DNA from: a virus
Taxonomy: Duplodnaviria > Heunggongvirae > Uroviricota > Caudoviricetes
Virus record (IMG/VR): IMGVR_UViG_2534682222_000010
Location: 1 to 7,832 of that record
Length of the DNA: 7,832 bases
Direction: 5' to 3' (one strand)
Position numbers and translations under genes: made by a program. Positions 1-4,858 of this stretch are shown here, piece after piece (the stretch's first letter is position 1; each line of letters begins with the position of its first letter). Below the pieces are notes generated by a model. It had not been told where the DNA came from. It saw nothing but the letters and a program-made list of their open reading frames with translations, and did not search any database.

Positions 1-484
1 GGTATGTGAGAATGTCAGCAATAGTATTTTTACCGATAATGTCACGTCCAACAGAAGTTAAATCAGTCTGCGCAGCTGTATCAGTTCCAGTGAAATACGG
101 TAATTTATTTGCTGCGCCCACTAACGCGGCTAACGCCGTCAATGTAGGATTCAGCGGCTGGAAGTTCCCAAGGATGTAGGACAGCGTTCCGGCCGTCATC
201 ATGTTTGCCGCAATGTCATTTGCTGACCACGCTCGTGGGACAGTTCCTTCCTGCCCACGCTGAATAGTAAAGACATCACCAGCCCGGGCAGTAACATGAA
301 CAATCTCCGTAAGAGAACCGGTTGTAGCATCAATCAGCGTCAGCTTAAAGAAACTTGTGCCTGATACCGGAGAAGGAAATAGTGCACCAGTTCCGGTATT
401 TAGTGTCAACGATGTTGCTGAGGCGCTAATGCCAGCCGCCAGAACGCTTTGAGCATTGTTAGCAGCTAAAAGTTGAAGTGCCAT
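1..484 (-). CDS. Phage tail fibre protein, N-terminal 161 codons (gene continues beyond window start)
   Basis: Minus-strand ATG at 484..482, preceded by GGAGGA (493..488) with a 3-nt spacer. Hand translation MALQLLAANNAQSVLAAGISASATSLTLNTGTGALFPSPVSGTSFFKLTLIDATTGSLTEIVHVTARAGDVFTIQRGQEGTVPRAWSANDIAANMMTAGTLSYILGNFQPLNPTLTALAALVGAANKLPYFTGTDTAAQTDLTSVGRDIIGKNTIADILTY is open to position 1. The stretch TLTALAAL..NKLPYF..VGRDI..KN..AD is a motif I recall from enterobacterial prophage side tail fibre proteins. Absent from the ORF track because it is truncated by the window edge. Confidence 0.75.
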   Translation of the reverse strand, partial: MALQLLAANNAQSVLAAGISASATSLTLNTGTGALFPSPVSGTSFFKLTLIDATTGSLTEIVHVTARAGDVFTIQRGQEGTVPRAWSANDIAANMMTAGTLSYILGNFQPLNPTLTALAALVGAANKLPYFTGTDTAAQTDLTSVGRDIIGKNTIADILTY

Positions 485-505
485 TTATCCTCCGGGATTC
501 GGGCA

Positions 506-534
506 ATAAAAAACCCGCCGAAGCGGGTTTGGTT
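506..534 (-). terminator. Intrinsic terminator downstream of ant (possibly bidirectional)
   Basis: Perfect 6-bp stem ACCCGC (513..518) / GCGGGT (523..528) with a CGAA loop. On the minus strand the hairpin is followed by TTTTTTAT; on the plus strand only by TTGGTT, so it is stronger for the minus strand. Confidence 0.6.
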
Positions 535-542
535 AACGATTT

Positions 543-1517
543 TTAGTTAATTACGAATTCTGCTTTAGCGCCGCGGAAGGAGATTGTTTTGTTTCCTGCC
601 CGCCGGCAAGCATCAGCAATTGCTTTCATGCCATATTCAATATTTGCCAGATGACTTCTCATTGCTACGATTTCAGCCTTAGGCGCTGATACGTCAAACC
701 CTGCCGCCTCAAGAATACTGATCAAGCGAATGGCGGACGATGTTGAATTGTCGCCACAGAGCATAGGCATAGTGACGTCCAGGGCAGGTGCACACATTGA
801 CTTTCCGAATGACAGGTTGCCACTGCGAACCACCGGATTGTTGTCAATCCACCACTGGAGAGGAAGGTTTACGTCAAACTTCGGTGTAGGGAGCGCCTCT
901 TGCTTTCCAAGAAACTCGCCTTCAATCGGTACGCGCGCCGCAATAGATAGCGCTTCGGTAAACTGGTCGTCGCTGATTTCTTTGTAGCTGCAACCAAAGT
1001 GGGATTTCAGTGATGACCACATAGTGATCATTGCCTTGGCCTGACAATCTTTCGGCAGTGCTTTACCACGGGTCATTACCAGTTGTTTGATCGCCTCCTG
1101 CTGCTCGGGAGTGATTTTACCTGGTAATGCCTTTTTCGCCTTGCGTGGGTTTTTGACCTCGCCTTTAGTCCAGTATTCGTAAAGCACATCGTCGCACTCC
1201 TCCTGATAGCGAATGACGTTATCGCGAATTCCTGGCCGTACTTTGTTAGGGCTGATGGTTTGGAGCCAGCCATTCAGTTTGCGTAACGCAAGGCAAAGCA
1301 TGGTTTGTTTACCCCCTTTCGTAGGGATCATGATTTCCATGACCCCTTTAGCAAACCGTGATTTCAGCTTATCGACCTGACCTTGATAGGTTAATCCCAT
1401 GCCATCAATAATTGGGCGCATTGGGGTATAAGCCTCACCGTTGTGCTCTACCACGAAAAGAGAATTTCCATAGAAAGGCACGTTGATTGTACGATCTGCA
1501 ATTGCTAAACTATTCAT
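543..1517 (-). CDS. ant: Phage antirepressor (Ant-like), 324 aa
   Basis: Part of track ORF 543..1607, but I place the start at ATG 1517..1515 (MNSLAIADRTINVPF...), which has AAGGA 7 nt upstream. The track start at 1607 lies inside the arc coding sequence in another frame and has no spacer after its purine run. The N-terminal half resembles the AntA/Rha-type antirepressor domain from memory. Location immediately downstream of an Arc homologue and divergent from an Mnt-like gene matches P22 immI. Confidence 0.75.
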   Translation of the reverse strand: MNSLAIADRTINVPFYGNSLFVVEHNGEAYTPMRPIIDGMGLTYQGQVDKLKSRFAKGVMEIMIPTKGGKQTMLCLALRKLNGWLQTISPNKVRPGIRDNVIRYQEECDDVLYEYWTKGEVKNPRKAKKALPGKITPEQQEAIKQLVMTRGKALPKDCQAKAMITMWSSLKSHFGCSYKEISDDQFTEALSIAARVPIEGEFLGKQEALPTPKFDVNLPLQWWIDNNPVVRSGNLSFGKSMCAPALDVTMPMLCGDNSTSSAIRLISILEAAGFDVSAPKAEIVAMRSHLANIEYGMKAIADACRRAGNKTISFRGAKAEFVIN

Positions 1518-1589
1518 TGTTAGTTCCTTGGTAGTTACTGACAAATTTGAAGCCCTGACTGTTGCTGCAGTTGGGGCTTCGTCGTTTCT
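1518..1589 (+). ncRNA. Candidate sar-like antisense RNA covering the ant ribosome-binding site
   Basis: Plus-strand candidate promoter inside the 5' end of ant: -35 TTGATT (1483..1488), 17-bp spacer, TG-extended -10 TGcTAAACT (1503..1511), predicted start near 1518. About 70 nt downstream is a hairpin plus U-rich tail (see terminator 1549..1589). The transcript would be complementary to the ant SD (1525..1529) and the arc-ant spacer. Inferred by analogy with P22 sar; not demonstrated. Confidence 0.3.
1549..1589 (+). terminator. Candidate intrinsic terminator for the antisense transcript
   Basis: Stem GAAGCCC (1549..1555) / GGGCTTC (1574..1580), with an inner ACTG/CAGT pairing (1558..1561 / 1568..1571), followed on the plus strand by GTCGTTTCT. 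On the minus strand it is followed by AAATTTG, so it is not a terminator in the mRNA direction. Confidence 0.35.
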
Positions 1590-1749
1590 ATGCCTTAATA
1601 AATCCATCTTCTTTCAAGCTCCTTTCTATACGTTTAATCACCTCACTGTTTACCGAGCGCCCCTCTTCTTTTGCTGCTTTCTTCAGGATTTCCTTCAGTG
1701 CATCAGGGAACCGAATGCCTGTTGGAGGGATGTTTCTTGCGTTGTGCAT
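1588..1749 (-). CDS. arc: Arc-like ribbon-helix-helix repressor, 53 aa (not in ORF track)
   Basis: Minus-strand ATG at 1749..1747 with AGGAGA (1760..1755) 5 nt upstream; TAG stop at 1590..1588. Hand translation MHNARNIPPTGIRFPDALKEILKKAAKEEGRSVNSEVIKRIERSLKEDGFIKA. Same length as P22 Arc and, from my memory of that sequence, shares the EEGRSVNSE core and C-terminal KEDG.I.A pattern. Sits directly upstream of ant as in P22. Confidence 0.85.
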   Translation of the reverse strand: MHNARNIPPTGIRFPDALKEILKKAAKEEGRSVNSEVIKRIERSLKEDGFIKA

Positions 1750-1771
1750 ATCATTCTCCTACTCAAAAAAA

Positions 1772-1784
1772 CTACATTATGTAG
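1772..1784. promoter_or_regulatory. Operator candidate 1: perfect 13-bp palindrome CTACAT-T-ATGTAG
   Basis: 6-bp arms around one central base. Embedded in a 17-bp unit ACTACATTATGTAGATT (1771..1787) that recurs exactly at 1828..1844. Lies just downstream of the candidate -10 of the arc-ant promoter, at the predicted transcript start. Confidence 0.6.
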
Positions 1785-1788
1785 ATTT

Positions 1789-1837
1789 ATAATTACAGCA
1801 TGTGTCTATTGCGTCAAGCACTTTTCGACTACATTAT
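1789..1837. promoter_or_regulatory. Candidate divergent, overlapping promoters (Pant-like on minus strand, Pmnt-like on plus strand)
   Basis: Minus strand: -35 TTGACG (1817..1812), 17-bp spacer, -10 AATTAT (1794..1789). Plus strand: -35 TTGCGT (1809..1814), 17-bp spacer, -10 CATTAT (1832..1837). The two -35 hexamers overlap on opposite strands. A perfect plus-strand TATAAT also sits at 1788..1793 but has no good -35. Hexamer assignments are by eye and uncertain. Confidence 0.3.
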
Positions 1838-1841
1838 GTAG
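1829..1841. promoter_or_regulatory. Operator candidate 2: identical 13-bp palindrome CTACAT-T-ATGTAG
   Basis: Second exact copy, centre 57 bp from the first. Overlaps the candidate -10 (CATTAT, 1832..1837) of the plus-strand promoter for the Mnt-like gene and lies upstream of the -35 of the minus-strand promoter. Confidence 0.6.
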
Positions 1842-1864
1842 ATTGTTGATTCTGAGGATGTAGC

Positions 1865-2197
1865 ATGAAAGGTGCCAGCTTGATAGCCCCGCTCGGGGTG
1901 AGGATCCCTGAAGATTTAAAGGAAAAAATCCAAGCCCAAGCAAAGGAAAACGGACGGTCGACTAACGCTGAAATCGTTCAAATACTCGAAAGTTCGTTTT
2001 CAAAGCTTGATGAAGGTGAAAACAATCGTTCGAATGAAACTTCAGGCCATTATCAATACTTACTGAGTATGAAGGATGAAATTATTGAGGCACAAAAGGA
2101 AACTATATCTCACATGGAAAACACTATAAATAGCCTCAGCGAGCACATTAACATTCTGAAAGATCATGTTGAGTTTTTGAAGAATAAGTACAAATAG
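1865..2197 (+). CDS. Mnt-like ribbon-helix-helix repressor with C-terminal coiled-coil extension, 110 aa
   Basis: Track ORF 1865..2197. ATG at 1865 with GAGGA (1854..1858) 6 nt upstream. N-terminus LGVRIPEDLKEKIQAQAKENGRSTNAEIVQILESSF fits the Arc/Mnt/MetJ pattern (beta-strand, helix, NGRS turn, helix). The C-terminal ~50 residues look coiled-coil-like with heptad-spaced hydrophobics. Divergent from arc-ant, the position P22 mnt occupies. Confidence 0.7.
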   Translation: MKGASLIAPLGVRIPEDLKEKIQAQAKENGRSTNAEIVQILESSFSKLDEGENNRSNETSGHYQYLLSMKDEIIEAQKETISHMENTINSLSEHINILKDHVEFLKNKYK

Positions 2198-2202
2198 CAA
2201 AA

Positions 2203-2220
2203 AGCCCACTGAAGTGGGCT
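2203..2220. terminator. Bidirectional intrinsic terminator between convergent genes
   Basis: Stem AGCCCAC (2203..2209) / GTGGGCT (2214..2220) with a TGAA loop. Followed on the plus strand by TTGCGATTT and on the minus strand by TTTTTGC. Lies between the stop of the Mnt-like gene (2197) and the stop of the minus-strand exported-protein gene (2231). Confidence 0.6.
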
Positions 2221-2230
2221 TTGCGATTTA

Positions 2231-2686
2231 CTACCATTGTTTTTTTAAATCGTCTTCTGTCATTTTTAATCTAAAAATATCTTTATATTTTTTTATGTAA
2301 ACTTCAGGGGATGCCCTGCACTTCATTTGAAAGTTTTTATCAAAATACTCCGTATTTCTTTTTATTCCTTCAACGGCGTCATTTTTTATCAACTCTTTAA
2401 CAATCATTCTGTATTCATCATGTGGGATAAGTAATATGTCACCAATCATATGGTCTCCTGAATACTGACCACTTACAGCATCATTTGCTGCATTGATGAT
2501 AAGCAAGGATGATGCAAAGCACATATTGTAAATATTTAGATCCGTTGGTTTCAACCCTGATTTTTTAATTTCATTTAACATCATTGAGTATTCTTCTTGA
2601 TCATTGGTTGGTAATGGAGCCGCCAACCCAACATGAACAGTTGAGAAAAAATACAAAAAACATGTTATTCCTATTTTTTTTATCAT
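2231..2686 (-). CDS. Hypothetical small exported protein with N-terminal signal peptide, AT-rich moron
   Basis: Track ORF 2231..2692, but the codon at 2692..2690 is GTG; the first ATG is 2686..2684, giving MIKKIGITCFLYFFSTVHVGLA/APLPTNDQ... (151 aa). N-terminus has a basic start, hydrophobic core and small residues at -3/-1, consistent with a signal peptidase I site; no lipobox. Two Cys in the mature part. By inspection the gene is much more AT-rich than the flanking baseplate genes. I recognise no family. Confidence 0.55.
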   Translation of the reverse strand: MIKKIGITCFLYFFSTVHVGLAAPLPTNDQEEYSMMLNEIKKSGLKPTDLNIYNMCFASSLLIINAANDAVSGQYSGDHMIGDILLIPHDEYRMIVKELIKNDAVEGIKRNTEYFDKNFQMKCRASPEVYIKKYKDIFRLKMTEDDLKKQW

Positions 2687-2733
2687 GCCCACTAACCCAG
2701 GTTATAAATGACTCGGAAGATAAGCATAACAAT

Positions 2734-3438
2734 TCAACCAATGATAGTCACGCTAACGGGTTGATAAAATGGCATGTGTAGCAGGCCGCTGTCAAACGCC
2801 TGCTTGAACAACGAAGCATATTCGTAGTTCGTGCTTTTTATCAGCAGGATTTTCTTCTGGTTGAACACCTGTGAATTGTAGGAAAATTTGTTGAACATGG
2901 AGGCATCAGTGAGTTTCCTGTACCCTTTGATGATCGATATGCTCGCCCCAGAATCAGAAAACAGAACCGAAATGCTCCACCTCTGATCGTTAACGACGTC
3001 TACGCCATCAACCCCTGTAAGAAACCTCATTATCCGGCGCTTTAACCATGGAATGGTGAAGTAATACCCGTCACCTTTATAGAAATTCCACGTCATGATT
3101 CGCTTAAACAGATCGTCTGAAACGACAACCTGCTCTGACTGATTAACCACCTTTCGCCCATTGAATGGCAACTGGTTGAACAGAACGGCGTTGTACGGGC
3201 CGAAAACGGATTGCTTTCCACTGACCAGCACCGGCGGCTTAACGCCATAAATCCCGCGGGCAATCCATTTTAACTGGTCACCAGCATTATACCCACCGAC
3301 AAAGATCGGAAGGTTGGCATTAATCATCCATGAATAAATTTCCTGAGCCATGGTATTATACGCAGTGACGAAGGCCTGTAGATCATCGTCGTCGTTATAC
3401 TGCGTATACAGATATGATTTAATTATATCTTCCAGCAT
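2734..3438 (-). CDS. Phage tail/baseplate protein, DUF2612 / gpI-like position (234 aa)
   Basis: Track ORF 2734..3456 starts on TTG; the first ATG is 3438..3436, one nucleotide after the TAA stop of the upstream gene (3442..3440). Lies directly after the baseplate-J-like gene, as in Mu-type and P2-type baseplate modules. Family call is from memory of DUF2612-type tail proteins. Confidence 0.55.
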   Translation of the reverse strand: MLEDIIKSYLYTQYNDDDDLQAFVTAYNTMAQEIYSWMINANLPIFVGGYNAGDQLKWIARGIYGVKPPVLVSGKQSVFGPYNAVLFNQLPFNGRKVVNQSEQVVVSDDLFKRIMTWNFYKGDGYYFTIPWLKRRIMRFLTGVDGVDVVNDQRWSISVLFSDSGASISIIKGYRKLTDASMFNKFSYNSQVFNQKKILLIKSTNYEYASLFKQAFDSGLLHMPFYQPVSVTIIG

Positions 3439-3439
3439 G

Positions 3440-4858
3440 TTATATCCCGTCGACAATTACCCCATTTGAGGCCATGTACCAGTAACTATATGGGTCACCG
3501 CTGATTATATTCGTACCGGCGTCAACGCCTGTGATAACGCCGTTCACAGTCACAATAACATTCAGGGTCGAGATCAGGCTCATATCGAGCGTGCTGTTAA
3601 TCGCCTGAAGAAAGACATCTTTGACGTTATTTATATTCATCGGCTTTCCTGCGAATATCCCGTTTACATAATTGATTACCGGTTGCGTCACCAGAGAGGC
3701 TATTGTCGCGTCTGTCAGGTAGTTCGCGCTTTCGGTTGCCCACTGAAACTTGATAGTCACCAGTTGCTGAAATGGTATAACAAACGGTATCAGGTAGTTA
3801 TCTGGCCAGTCGTTGACCGTAACCACATTATTCCTCAGGTTCGGCGTAACTATTCCACCACCAGTCCATGCGCCTGACGAGGTGGTATTGATGCCTATTG
3901 AGAAAGTGTGTGGACTTAACACGGTTATAGTGAGAGGGACGTTATTAATCCCGCTCATGCCGGTAACACCTGCGATATTAATTACCTGGCCAGAGCTGAA
4001 TCCGTGCGTGATGTCGGTCGTTACTACTCCTGGGTTCGCATTGGTGATCCCGGTGACGTTCAGGTCAGTCCCTTTTAGCCTGCTGATGTCGCCGGCTGAC
4101 TTATAAATGGCCCCGGCCATCTCATAGATATCGCCGCCGCCACACATAACAATCCAGGCATTACCGCTCTGAACAACGGAAACCAGACGAGCCTGGACAT
4201 TACTCAGGTCTGTCAATTTCTGGCGGATAAAGCCTGGATATCCCTGAACAGTCGACATCTGAGCTTCCCAGACGCGCTCGCGAAATTCGAAGTTAGTTTC
4301 AGGCGCACCACCTGGGGTGCCAGCAACCGGGTTGGTGCAGGTCAGAGTAATGCCAGACGGCAGGCTGGTCAGTATCTGATTAACCGATCCTACCGGTACA
4401 GCCCACGAACCAGTGTTTGTTGCAATGGCTGTTACCATCGAACTGACACCGGAAGACAGCACCACTGTCGCATCGGCGATCTGGTAGGTATACGTGCCAT
4501 CGCTGACCAGAAACCCCTGTGACACTACGAAGCCGACCGGGCCCTCAAACACGACAGGTACAGTTGTCGCCCCCTGAGTTTTTTGTTCGCTGATACCTGA
4601 CTGCTGGGCCAGAAGGTTCAGCATGTACATATTGGCTTTCAGCGGGCCTACGGAGTTGATGAGGTCGACACGAATCTGATCGGCAATGAGTAGCGCGCCA
4701 ACATCGGTACCGACGATATCCTCGATAAGTGATCCGGGGAGGTCCGTAGTGATGCCTGGTGATAATTCTGTGGCTCTTGAAACTAAGTCGGCGCGCAGCT
4801 CTTCGGATGTTTTCGGCACTGGCCCGGCTGCGTCATAGCTAACGGACAAATCACTCAT
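3440..4858 (-). CDS. Baseplate J-like protein (472 aa)
   Basis: Track ORF with ATG at 4858..4856 overlapping the upstream stop as ATGA. Size and position (after a ~110-aa gene, before the gpI-like gene and tail fibre) fit baseplate wedge protein J of Mu (gp47) or P2 (gpJ). Assigned by overall resemblance and synteny; unverified. Confidence 0.65.
   Translation of the reverse strand: MSDLSVSYDAAGPVPKTSEELRADLVSRATELSPGITTDLPGSLIEDIVGTDVGALLIADQIRVDLINSVGPLKANMYMLNLLAQQSGISEQKTQGATTVPVVFEGPVGFVVSQGFLVSDGTYTYQIADATVVLSSGVSSMVTAIATNTGSWAVPVGSVNQILTSLPSGITLTCTNPVAGTPGGAPETNFEFRERVWEAQMSTVQGYPGFIRQKLTDLSNVQARLVSVVQSGNAWIVMCGGGDIYEMAGAIYKSAGDISRLKGTDLNVTGITNANPGVVTTDITHGFSSGQVINIAGVTGMSGINNVPLTITVLSPHTFSIGINTTSSGAWTGGGIVTPNLRNNVVTVNDWPDNYLIPFVIPFQQLVTIKFQWATESANYLTDATIASLVTQPVINYVNGIFAGKPMNINNVKDVFLQAINSTLDMSLISTLNVIVTVNGVITGVDAGTNIISGDPYSYWYMASNGVIVDGI

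Follow-up and report, generated by a model that had tools for sequence, protein, structure and literature searches.

A terminator-like hairpin separating a P22-type immI cassette from the tail-fibre gene in a lambdoid prophage with a contractile tail

The short gap that separates the antirepressor gene ant from the tail-fibre gene in a 7,832-nucleotide stretch of viral DNA (IMG/VR record IMGVR_UViG_2534682222_000010; hereafter the window) is largely occupied by a hairpin, T2, which has the form of an intrinsic terminator. We consider it probable (roughly 75%) that T2 stops the transcripts of the neighbouring cargo genes and of the candidate ant promoter Pant, and that late RNA polymerase modified by the antiterminator Q reads through it into the fibre gene. 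The window phage, a lambdoid prophage with a contractile tail, is a relative of Klebsiella phage Chronis, and its layout is an ordinary lambdoid one that reveals no new mechanism.

In the model that we favour, T2 would be the intrinsic terminator that closes a variable cargo slot of this prophage, filled in the window by a gene for a presumably secreted protein and by the entire immI cassette. Unmodified RNA polymerase starting at the cargo promoters, including Pant, would halt there, which would keep the fibre and assembly genes off in the lysogen. In the lytic cycle, a single promoter beside the Q gene would serve the late operon. Since Q would render this polymerase resistant to terminators, it would pass the hairpin T1 (2222..2201), run antisense across mnt and in the sense direction across arc and ant, continue past T2 and enter the fibre gene, which would be translated from its own strong ribosome-binding site. 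By analogy with what has been proposed for P22, the late polymerase may be modulated while it crosses immI.

The ant-fibre gap and the immI cassette of the window

On the minus strand the TAA of the ant-like reading frame occupies 545..543 and the fibre ATG stands at 484..482, which leaves 58 nt between them (542..485). The sequence-only reading had given these positions exactly, and it had described the gap as mostly hairpin and T-run, in agreement with the 30 of 58 nt that the T2 hairpin and its tail take up. The hairpin begins 12 nt past the ant TAA, and on the sense strand its stem, GCGGGUUU, is followed directly by UUUAUUG; in the terminator scan the element appeared as AAACCCGC-TTCG-GCGGGTTT at 530..511, then TTTATTGCCC at 510..501. 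The stem has 8 bp, 5 of them GC pairs, and when folded alone T2 reached −12.8 kcal/mol (z = −3.8), with none of 200 shuffled sequences being as stable. The fibre N-terminus matched several PHROG tail-fibre families (E-values down to 4.5e-21), and the homologues in RefSeq are annotated as tail fiber protein. A small predicted hairpin over the fibre Shine-Dalgarno sequence was dropped, as it is weak and absent from relatives. The Rfam matches over 505-624 (Trp_leader and rsmX, E-values 0.7-0.9, far under the gathering scores) were set aside as terminator look-alikes.

Only 26 nt lie between the stem and the fibre ATG, and a scan limited to sigma-70-type consensus found no minus-strand site of at least 9/12 from 484 to 1516. 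This bears out the earlier claim that the fibre gene has no room for its own promoter. With no promoter room downstream of T2 and no candidate upstream of it in ant, transcripts that reach the fibre gene must cross T2; the idea that fibre expression depends on terminator read-through is thereby supported, and close relatives do carry Q.

Table 1. Features of the window that are discussed in the text, with positions counted along the window.
Feature	Position	Strand	Remarks
Tail-fibre gene, 5' part	1..484	minus	ATG 484..482; continues beyond the window edge; PHROG matches
Fibre Shine-Dalgarno sequence GGAGGA	488..493	minus	3 nt before the ATG; within the conserved leader ATTGCCnnAATCCCGGAGGAnAAATG
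T2, intrinsic-terminator-like element	501..530	minus	stem AAACCCGC/GCGGGTTT with UUCG loop (530..511); tail UUUAUUGCCC (510..501)
ant (antirepressor), 324 aa	543..1517	minus	matches Pfam P22_AR_N, PHROG Ant and P22 Ant
sar-like antisense RNA	1517..1584	plus	over the ant ribosome-binding region; terminator hairpin 1548-1581
arc-like ribbon-helix-helix repressor, 53 aa	1588..1749	minus	Pfam Arc (PF03869), 2e-12
Divergent control region	1771..1844		candidate operators and candidate Pant
mnt-like ribbon-helix-helix repressor, 110 aa	1865..2197	plus	opposite to the late genes; Pfam Arc (PF03869), 3.1e-12
T1, two-way terminator-like hairpin	2201..2222		where mnt and the 153-aa cargo gene end towards each other
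Cargo gene, 151-153 aa product	2231..2692	minus	N-terminal hydrophobic, signal-like segment
Last baseplate-module gene, about 234-240 aa	2734..3456	minus	phrog_8212, 3.8e-75; adjoins the variable slot upstream

The insert ahead of T2 is a complete P22-type immI cassette that comprises mnt, two candidate operators, arc, a sar RNA and ant, with mnt divergent from arc-ant, and it sits in the slot that separates the last gene of the baseplate module from the fibre gene, directly 5' of the receptor-binding gene. The Ant protein matched Pfam P22_AR_N (PF10547) at 4.9e-41 and the PHROG anti-repressor Ant at 5.8e-66, and it is 41% identical to P22 Ant over 212 residues; the match to the N-terminus of P22 Ant places the true start of the gene at 1517. 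The arc-like protein is 38% identical to P22 Arc over its full length (BLASTP 1e-13), and the mnt-like protein is 39% identical to the N-terminal domain of P22 Mnt (BLASTP 1e-10). The sar-like RNA spans the arc-ant junction and was matched at full length by Rfam RF00262 (46.9 bits, with the gathering score at 43; E 2.5e-07), with a fold of −31.8 kcal/mol (z −6.3). Two 17-nt repeats, ACTACATTATGTAGATT (1771-1787 and 1828-1844), each contain the palindrome CTACAT-T-ATGTAG and, judged by the P22 layout, are candidate operators. The candidate Pant, which reached 9/12 with a TG motif in the promoter scan, consists of TTGACG (1817..1812), a 17-nt spacer and TG-AATTAT (1794..1789). On the far side of mnt, T1 (fold −15.8 kcal/mol, z −4.9) would be a second terminator in the path of late transcription. 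The 153-aa cargo protein beyond T1 yielded no Pfam or PHROG matches, and the promoter scan gave no convincing site for its gene; a homologue with 66% identity is the sole cargo at the corresponding position of E. coli KCJ3K291. Although the cassette belongs to the P22 type, the phage itself is not a P22-like podovirus: the window encodes Baseplate_J, baseplate-hub proteins and a tail fibre, and relatives carry myovirus names (vB_YenM).

Cargo and terminator at related junctions

Relatives of the junction were collected via protein search. Megablast of window positions 1-3500 against a phage collection gave no matches, and an exact-pattern scan of genome contigs with the conserved leader, a pattern that was too strict, returned a single locus (Rahnella). 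In the relatives the position of the last baseplate-module gene is unchanged throughout, and the slot between baseplate and fibre ranges from 69 to 2854 nt, holding at least five types of cargo or none. At loci L074/L075 and L077 the baseplate stop and the fibre ATG are 69 nt apart, which means that the flanking genes are adjacent without cargo. The accessory genes in the slot mostly encode predicted lipoproteins and small membrane proteins, which could be exclusion factors, and for annotation purposes the baseplate-fibre junction can be treated as a hot spot of accessory genes.

A hairpin with a T-tail 25-29 nt before the fibre ATG was present at 43 of 66 distinct related junctions, compared with 1.5% of shuffled controls, and the T2 feature is therefore more than a chance occurrence. 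Its presence followed the orientation of the cargo. It was found with all 25 co-directional cargoes, with 10 of 23 divergent ones, in 2 of 5 empty slots and in none of the 4 cases where the junction lies behind another fibre module; for co-directional cargo against divergent and empty slots combined, Fisher's test gives p = 2e-6 when loci are counted as independent despite their shared ancestry. The unbroken association with co-directional cargo suggests selection against cargo read-through. The stems vary in sequence yet remain paired, 4 of the 8 stem pairs having changed on both sides among 18 variants. These pairs were counted on loop-centred hairpins with 4-nt loops, in which the overall percentage of pairing follows from the selection itself because the hairpins had been chosen for being hairpins; a MAFFT alignment of 28 junctions was not used for the count since its structural register is off. 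The leader ATTGCCnnAATCCCGGAGGAnAAATG is kept in most related junctions.

The terminator also remains in 2 empty slots and 10 slots with divergent cargo. In these no transcript of co-directional cargo would need stopping, and the copies there may be relics or have another role. Its absence from 23 of the 66 junctions indicates that the hairpin is dispensable for fibre expression and phage viability. Relatives without ant have the same terminator and leader ahead of the fibre gene, and the terminator is thus not specific to ant: it accompanies every co-directional cargo and occurs even in empty 69-nt slots. That it goes with all co-directional cargo and is often lost with divergent cargo fits a terminator that decouples the fibre gene from cargo and Pant transcription, and lends no support to the earlier suggestion that Pant may feed the fibre gene and so couple receptor-binding protein expression to the immunity region.

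Q and the late operon of close relatives

At the loci that encode an identical Ant, the late genes all point the same way with little space between them, and one of these loci (L004) runs on into a lambdoid early region with RecT, GamL, Kil, an S24 repressor and CII. The related prophage of E. coli KCJ3K291 (L011) shows 83% DNA identity across the baseplate and fibre genes, and on the yciI side its flank is the same as that of locus L005. It is a complete lambdoid prophage in which Q, lysis, head, tail, baseplate, cargo and fibre genes lie on one strand. Its Q belongs to PF03589 (8.4e-44), and two strong, tR'-like terminators (23019-23043 and 23304-23321) stand directly after Q and before the holin gene. 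The putative late promoter, judged by eye, is only a weak match to the consensus. Within the late operon of KCJ3K291 one promoter-like site was counted, compared with 12.1 ± 4.0 expected.

On one IMG/VR contig (L095/L013) an identical Q precedes, by about 22-24 kb and in the same orientation, a fibre gene that is 95% identical to that of the window, and this contig retains the last ~20 nt of ant together with an identical hairpin. Among the best 80 matches to the KCJ3K291 Q, the only related loci on a shared contig were L013 and L038, both of them ant-less, and P22 gp23 as a query retrieved lambda-type Q contigs only, which did not overlap the related loci. The suggestion to look for a Q-like or gp23-like antiterminator elsewhere in the prophage was in this way answered in part: close relatives have Q about 23-24 kb upstream on the same strand with tR'-like terminators behind it, and the window's own prophage by extension presumably carries such a Q.

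Alternative readings and known systems

A promoter belonging to the fibre gene itself, overlapping the hairpin or T-run or lying in the 3' end of ant and perhaps responding to a phage-specific activator, appears highly improbable. Coding sequence can contain promoters, the consensus scan covered sigma-70-type sites only, and the T-run and ATTGCC leader are kept even in junctions that have no hairpin. Against this stand not only the absence of sites in that scan and the mere 69 nt from baseplate stop to fibre ATG in empty slots, but also the best hexamers near the hairpin, which by eye match 3-4/6 of the −10 consensus at the wrong spacing. Moreover, relatives are unrelated in sequence 5' of the T-run, so no shared promoter can lie there, and a promoter within ant would still meet the terminator. 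It is less far-fetched, but still rather unlikely, that a meaningful share of fibre mRNA stems from Pant leak-through and that Mnt and Arc thereby set the fibre level. Pant is the nearest well-matching promoter-like site on the sense strand, and intrinsic terminators are never 100% efficient; however, T2 equals the annotated P22 ant terminator in form and stability, the link of the terminator to co-directional cargo and its presence ahead of the fibre gene in ant-less relatives point the other way, and the corresponding statement for P22 concerns polymerase from the late promoter rather than Pant transcripts.

We also weighed the possibility that the hairpin is chiefly something other than a terminator, namely a stabiliser of mRNA 3' ends, a stabiliser of 5' ends after processing or, together with the leader, a boundary for recombination between cargo and fibre modules, and we regard it as distinctly unlikely. 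Relatives with differing cargo do become homologous from the T-run or hairpin onwards, two fibre paralogues in L079 and L080 each have their own copy of hairpin and leader, the stretch between ant and tailspike of CUS-3 is annotated as 'boundary sequence', and P22 and CUS-3 are similar to the window for ~20 nt beyond the hairpin. Nevertheless, a GC-rich stem with U6 directly behind it is what marks intrinsic terminators, the link to cargo orientation is what a transcriptional role predicts, and a boundary function would be compatible with termination. In addition, the unrelated KCJ3K291 terminator at 23304-23321 has the same TTTTTTATTGC tail, and for this reason the resemblance to P22 may be generic. 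A related idea, tentative and on balance unlikely, is that hairpin, T-run and leader (TTTTTTATTGCC..GGAGGA..ATG) form a portable junction cassette that P22-like podoviruses (t_ant/bsq1) and this contractile-tail family share by common descent, that makes the receptor-binding gene strictly Q-dependent and that serves as a homologous joint for the exchange of morons (immI) and fibre modules. If true, this could explain why antirepressor cassettes stand directly 5' of receptor-binding genes despite unrelated tails.

Termination at T2 with Q-dependent passage remains our preferred reading, and it has a close counterpart in P22. In both phages the order is late structural genes, accessory gene(s), opposite-strand mnt, divergent promoters with operators, arc, sar, ant, terminator and receptor-binding gene, with Ant, Arc and Mnt 38-41% identical over the aligned regions, and the P22 ant terminator shares with T2 the 8-bp stem, the UUCG loop and the U-run. 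The analogy to P22 gene 9 that had been drawn from the letters alone was apt, as in the annotation of the P22 record mnt, arc, sar, ant and an ant terminator come before gene 9. Berget, Poteete and Sauer reportedly described, in 1983, a control of P22 tail protein expression by transcription termination. The two systems differ in that P22 has a short tail with a tailspike, whereas the window encodes the baseplate of a contractile tail along with a tail fibre; in addition, the C-terminal third of Ant is unrelated, the Mnt of the window is longer (110 aa) and the Q of its close relatives is of the PF03589 type. The terminator stands 26 nt from the start codon here; in CUS-3 the distance is about 64 nt, in P22 about 168 nt. 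The arrangement has precedent in P22 (PMC2629481, PMC8022706), where an 'ant moron' lies 5' of the tailspike gene (PMC2629481), and the slot is hypervariable in P22-like phages (PMC2629481) as it is in the relatives of the window. Our data extend this 'ant moron' layout, a secondary immunity cassette sealed by a terminator before the receptor-binding gene, to a lambdoid contractile-tail family. They also lend comparative support to one of the roles proposed for late-operon terminators, which is to bar non-antiterminated transcripts from virion genes and to let Q-modified polymerase pass.

As in other lambdoid Q late operons, the relatives have Q and a putative short leader with tR'-like terminators, followed on one strand by the genes for lysis, head and tail. 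A moron, as PMC2629481 relays the definition of Juhala et al. (2000), is a promoter, gene and terminator inserted among late genes. The window cargo resembles morons in being bounded by terminator-like hairpins and in that the baseplate and fibre genes are adjacent in cargo-less relatives; it differs in that its promoters are predicted and that the terminator also occurs in some slots without co-directional cargo. In CUS-3, the ant gene, with 74% identity across the N-terminal 207 aa, has behind it in bsq1 the sequence ACCCAGC-TTCG-GCTGGGT, a T-run and ATGCCCAAAAT, just ahead of the receptor-binding gene; CUS-3 is, unlike the window phage, a P22-like podovirus, and past the terminator the similarity extends for only about 20 nt, which may be a generic match. 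Baseplate-J-like proteins with 66-75% identity to that of the window are encoded by Klebsiella phages Chronis (vB_Kpn_Chronis, MN013086) and RothC/RothD, by Yersinia phages of the vB_YenM_29.18 type and by Pantoea phage PdC23. Chronis, an isolated phage, has the same order within its tail module, with cargo gp22, AAACCCGC-TTCG-GCGGGTTT plus T-run and fibre gp23, but its slot is without an immI cassette and the distal parts of the fibres differ.

The junction between ant and the tail-fibre gene

Reading frames on the window sequence placed the stop codon of ant and the ATG of the fibre gene exactly where the sequence-only reading had put them, 58 nt apart. A terminator scan of this gap returned AAACCCGC-TTCG-GCGGGTTT followed by TTTATTGCCC, a hairpin (T2) with a stability of −12.8 kcal/mol when folded alone (z = −3.8; none of 200 shuffles was as stable). 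Only 26 nt separate the stem from the fibre ATG, and no sigma-70-like site of at least 9/12 was found in a consensus scan of the minus strand from 484 to 1516. Since a promoter farther upstream would have T2 in its path, the fibre mRNA must cross the hairpin, which supports the earlier proposal that fibre expression depends on terminator read-through. T2 is a real and correctly placed feature that is well explained by established lambdoid logic.

The gene downstream of the junction has hits in several PHROG families of tail fibres (lowest E 4.5e-21), and the gene upstream encodes an antirepressor (Pfam P22_AR_N, 4.9e-41; PHROG Ant, 5.8e-66) that shares 41% identity with P22 Ant in the N-terminal 212 residues. 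Because of this N-terminal match, the ant start was assigned to 1517 and not to the first ATG of a longer ORF. The sar-type RNA covers this start and its ribosome-binding site; a candidate sar promoter, noted by eye, is weak and scored below the threshold of the scan. Two identical 17-nt repeats (ACTACATTATGTAGATT), 57 nt apart and each containing the 13-nt palindrome CTACAT-T-ATGTAG, flank an arc-facing promoter-like site (candidate Pant), one lying just downstream of the −10 and the other upstream of the −35. These repeats are likely the Arc/Mnt operators, although they are identical in sequence whereas O-arc and O-mnt of P22 are distinct. Together, ant, arc, the divergent mnt, sar, and the repeats with their promoter-like site make up a complete P22-type immI cassette. 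A two-way hairpin (T1) lies between the converging 3′ ends of mnt and a 153-aa cargo gene.

Features of the window around the immI cassette
Feature	Position	Strand	Basis or remark
Segment shared with E. coli prophage fibre genes	1-112		fibre codons ~125-161
Fibre ATG	484..482	-	
GGAGGA	493..488		3 nt ahead of fibre ATG
T2 hairpin	530..511		terminator scan
ant stop (TAA)	545..543	-	
Candidate sar promoter	1483-1488, 1506-1511		TTGATT, 17 nt, TAAACT; predicted start ~1518
sar antisense RNA	1517-1584	+	Rfam RF00262, 46.9 bits (gathering 43), E 2.5e-07
sar terminator stem	1548-1581		15 bp
Arc homologue	1749..1588	-	Pfam; comparison with P22 Arc
17-nt repeats	1771-1787, 1828-1844		likely operators
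Mnt homologue, divergent	1865-2197	+	Pfam; comparison with P22 Mnt
T1, two-way terminator-like hairpin	2201-2222	both	−15.8 kcal/mol, z −4.9
153-aa cargo gene	2692..2231	-	signal-like N-terminus; between last baseplate gene and immI cassette
Promoter-like site	3355-3382	-	TCTACA, 16 nt, TATAAT; 10/12
Baseplate_J-like protein, 472 aa	3440-4858	-	

In the P22 record, sieA, mnt, the overlapping Pmnt and Pant with their operators, arc, sar and ant are annotated in this order, followed by the ant terminator (16012-16035) and gene 9 (16204). The hairpin after ant in P22 and CUS-3, ACCCAGC-TTCG-GCTGGGT with U7, matches that of the window in form and stability, and a resemblance of about 20 nt extends past the stem. 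As an unrelated terminator in the E. coli KCJ3K291 prophage has the same TTTTTTATTGC tail, this resemblance is no proof of common descent of the terminators. The distance from terminator to start is 26 nt in the window, ~64 nt in CUS-3 and ~168 nt in P22. The window shows the P22 arrangement in a phage whose tail is of another kind. It is a new, if modest, point that the ant-moron layout recurs ahead of the receptor-binding gene in a family of lambdoid phages with contractile tails.

Cargo and terminators in related loci

An identical Ant protein was found on 24 contigs. In all of them the baseplate genes are followed by variable cargo, then by mnt, arc and ant, and after a gap of 58-59 nt by the fibre gene; one contig (L004) also includes an early region of lambdoid type, encoding RecT, GamL, Kil, an S24 repressor and CII. 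DNA identity across the baseplate and fibre segments is 83-85% in E. coli prophages, which lack the immI cassette, and comparison with KCJ3K291 suggests that the cassette and T1 were inserted between the 153-aa cargo gene and the fibre-proximal terminator. A nucleotide search of the phage collection with positions 1-3500 of the window gave no match. The baseplate-J-like protein shows 66-75% identity to proteins of Klebsiella phages Chronis, RothC and RothD, several Yersinia vB_YenM phages and Pantoea phage PdC23; its residues 275-338 match a ubiquitin-E1 FCCH-type domain (PF16190, 1.3e-14), from which the RefSeq names of its homologues derive.

The slot between the last baseplate gene and the fibre gene is empty (69 nt) in some relatives. 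In the rest it is occupied by a divergent gene for a small membrane protein, by one of several co-directional genes whose products have a signal or lipobox-like N-terminus, or by an mnt/arc/antirepressor cassette, of which there are at least four kinds. Across the related loci (L001-L092) the cargo consists mostly of small envelope-type proteins: proteins of 151-153 aa with a signal-like N-terminus, several of 187-327 aa with a lipobox-like LSGC, IAGC or LVGC, and a divergent protein of 82-99 aa with two hydrophobic segments. Such proteins may be superinfection-exclusion or conversion factors; that of the window, the only one searched, had no match in Pfam or PHROG. The best promoter-like match on the late-gene strand of the window lies within the last baseplate gene, ~660 nt upstream of the 153-aa gene, and this predicted promoter could drive the cargo gene in the lysogen. 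In three loci (L013, L039, L047) the ant-type hairpin persists together with the final ~20 nt of ant (GCAGAATT[C/T]GTAATTAACTAA), ~70 to 45 nt upstream of the fibre ATG and directly downstream of a 256-aa lipoprotein-like gene; this remnant is a footprint of loss or replacement of the immI cassette.

We compared the 75 nt upstream of every fibre start that could be recognised in the E. coli, NCBI, ENA and IMG/VR loci and in Chronis. A hairpin with a T-tail was present in 43 of 66 distinct upstream sequences, compared to 1.5% of shuffled controls; in nearly all of the 43 its end lies 25-29 nt from the ATG, and the stem is followed by a conserved TTTTTTATTGCCnnAATCCCGGAGGAnAAATG. Similarity among relatives with different cargo starts at the T-run. 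The stems vary (CCCGC/GCGGG, CCCAC/GTGGG, CCTCGC/GCGGGG, CCCACC/GGTGGG, CCGCC/GGCGG), and four of the eight stem pairs were altered on both sides among 18 variants with 4-nt loops, which had been pre-selected for a hairpin. The presence of the terminator followed the orientation of the cargo, again a modest new point: it was found in all 25 junctions where the nearest cargo gene is directed towards the fibre gene, in 10 of 23 with a divergent gene, in 2 of 5 empty slots, and in none of 4 where the fibre gene lies behind another fibre module (co-directional versus divergent plus empty, Fisher p = 2e-6, uncorrected for ancestry shared among loci). In L043 and L044 the stem has decayed, and in the isolated phage Chronis cargo gp22 is followed by the same hairpin and the fibre gene. 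The terminator is, on these comparisons, a property of the slot and not of ant, and looks selected to block transcripts from cargo promoters such as Pant. A fibre gene fed from the arc-ant promoter, the alternative offered by the sequence-only reading, is at odds with this pattern of co-directional and divergent junctions.

Late transcription and the proposed role of T2

The Q-type antiterminator that had been suggested exists in this family, where it was seen in relatives without ant. The KCJ3K291 prophage is a complete lambdoid with int, exo/bet/gam, repressor, cro, cII, O/P and nin genes, the last followed by an antitermination protein (PF03589, 8.4e-44); the lysis, head, tail, baseplate, cargo and fibre genes all follow Q on one strand. 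Two strong terminators lie between the Q and holin genes, and elsewhere on the sense strand of the late region clear termination signals occur only after the lysis cassette. These ~20 kb (22800-42700) contain one sigma-70-like site, compared to 12.1 ± 4.0 expected from shuffles. An IMG/VR contig (L095/L013) encodes an identical Q ~22-24 kb upstream of the fibre gene on the same strand; this fibre gene is 95% identical to that of the window, and the identical hairpin and ant remnant are retained. Two contig-overlap searches with Q proteins, one over the 80 best hits of the KCJ3K291 Q and one with P22 gp23, found no link to the ant-bearing contigs.

The simplest account is that T2 is a terminator acting as an insulator. 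Transcription begun at a cargo promoter, in this case Pant, would halt at T2, which would leave the fibre and assembly genes unexpressed in the lysogen. During lytic growth, Q-modified polymerase from a single late promoter would pass both T1 and T2 and reach the fibre gene, which would be translated from its own strong ribosome-binding site. That T2 terminates and that Q overrides it we infer from established lambdoid biology. The insulator account would predict a hairpin that is tied to co-directional cargo and decayed elsewhere, and both were seen. Villafane et al. describe the roles of internal terminators in late operons as not known, and suggest that they may block transcription without antitermination. 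Convergent transcription of mnt and sar, or bound repressors, may still slow the late polymerase on its way through immI; PMC2629481, citing Adams et al. 1985, reports a proposal of this kind for P22.

Organization of the fibre genes

The segment of the fibre gene at the window's edge is ~93% identical to many unrelated E. coli prophage tail-fibre genes, and the remainder of the fibre N-terminus has no such match to these genes; the segment looks like a shared joint for the exchange of distal fibre parts. In three loci (L005, L006, L008) the fibre and assembly segment is invertible and is followed by a resolvase-type invertase gene. Seven others contain a second fibre gene that shares the conserved N-terminal domain of the first; the hairpin and leader precede both copies (L079, L080) or only the first (L074, L075, L077, L082 and Chronis, L092). 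The annotated start of Chronis gp23 (19898) falls within the terminator T-run. The start used in all relatives corresponds to the ATG at 19919, which has GGAGGA ahead of it, so that gp23 was probably deposited with a start 7 codons too early.
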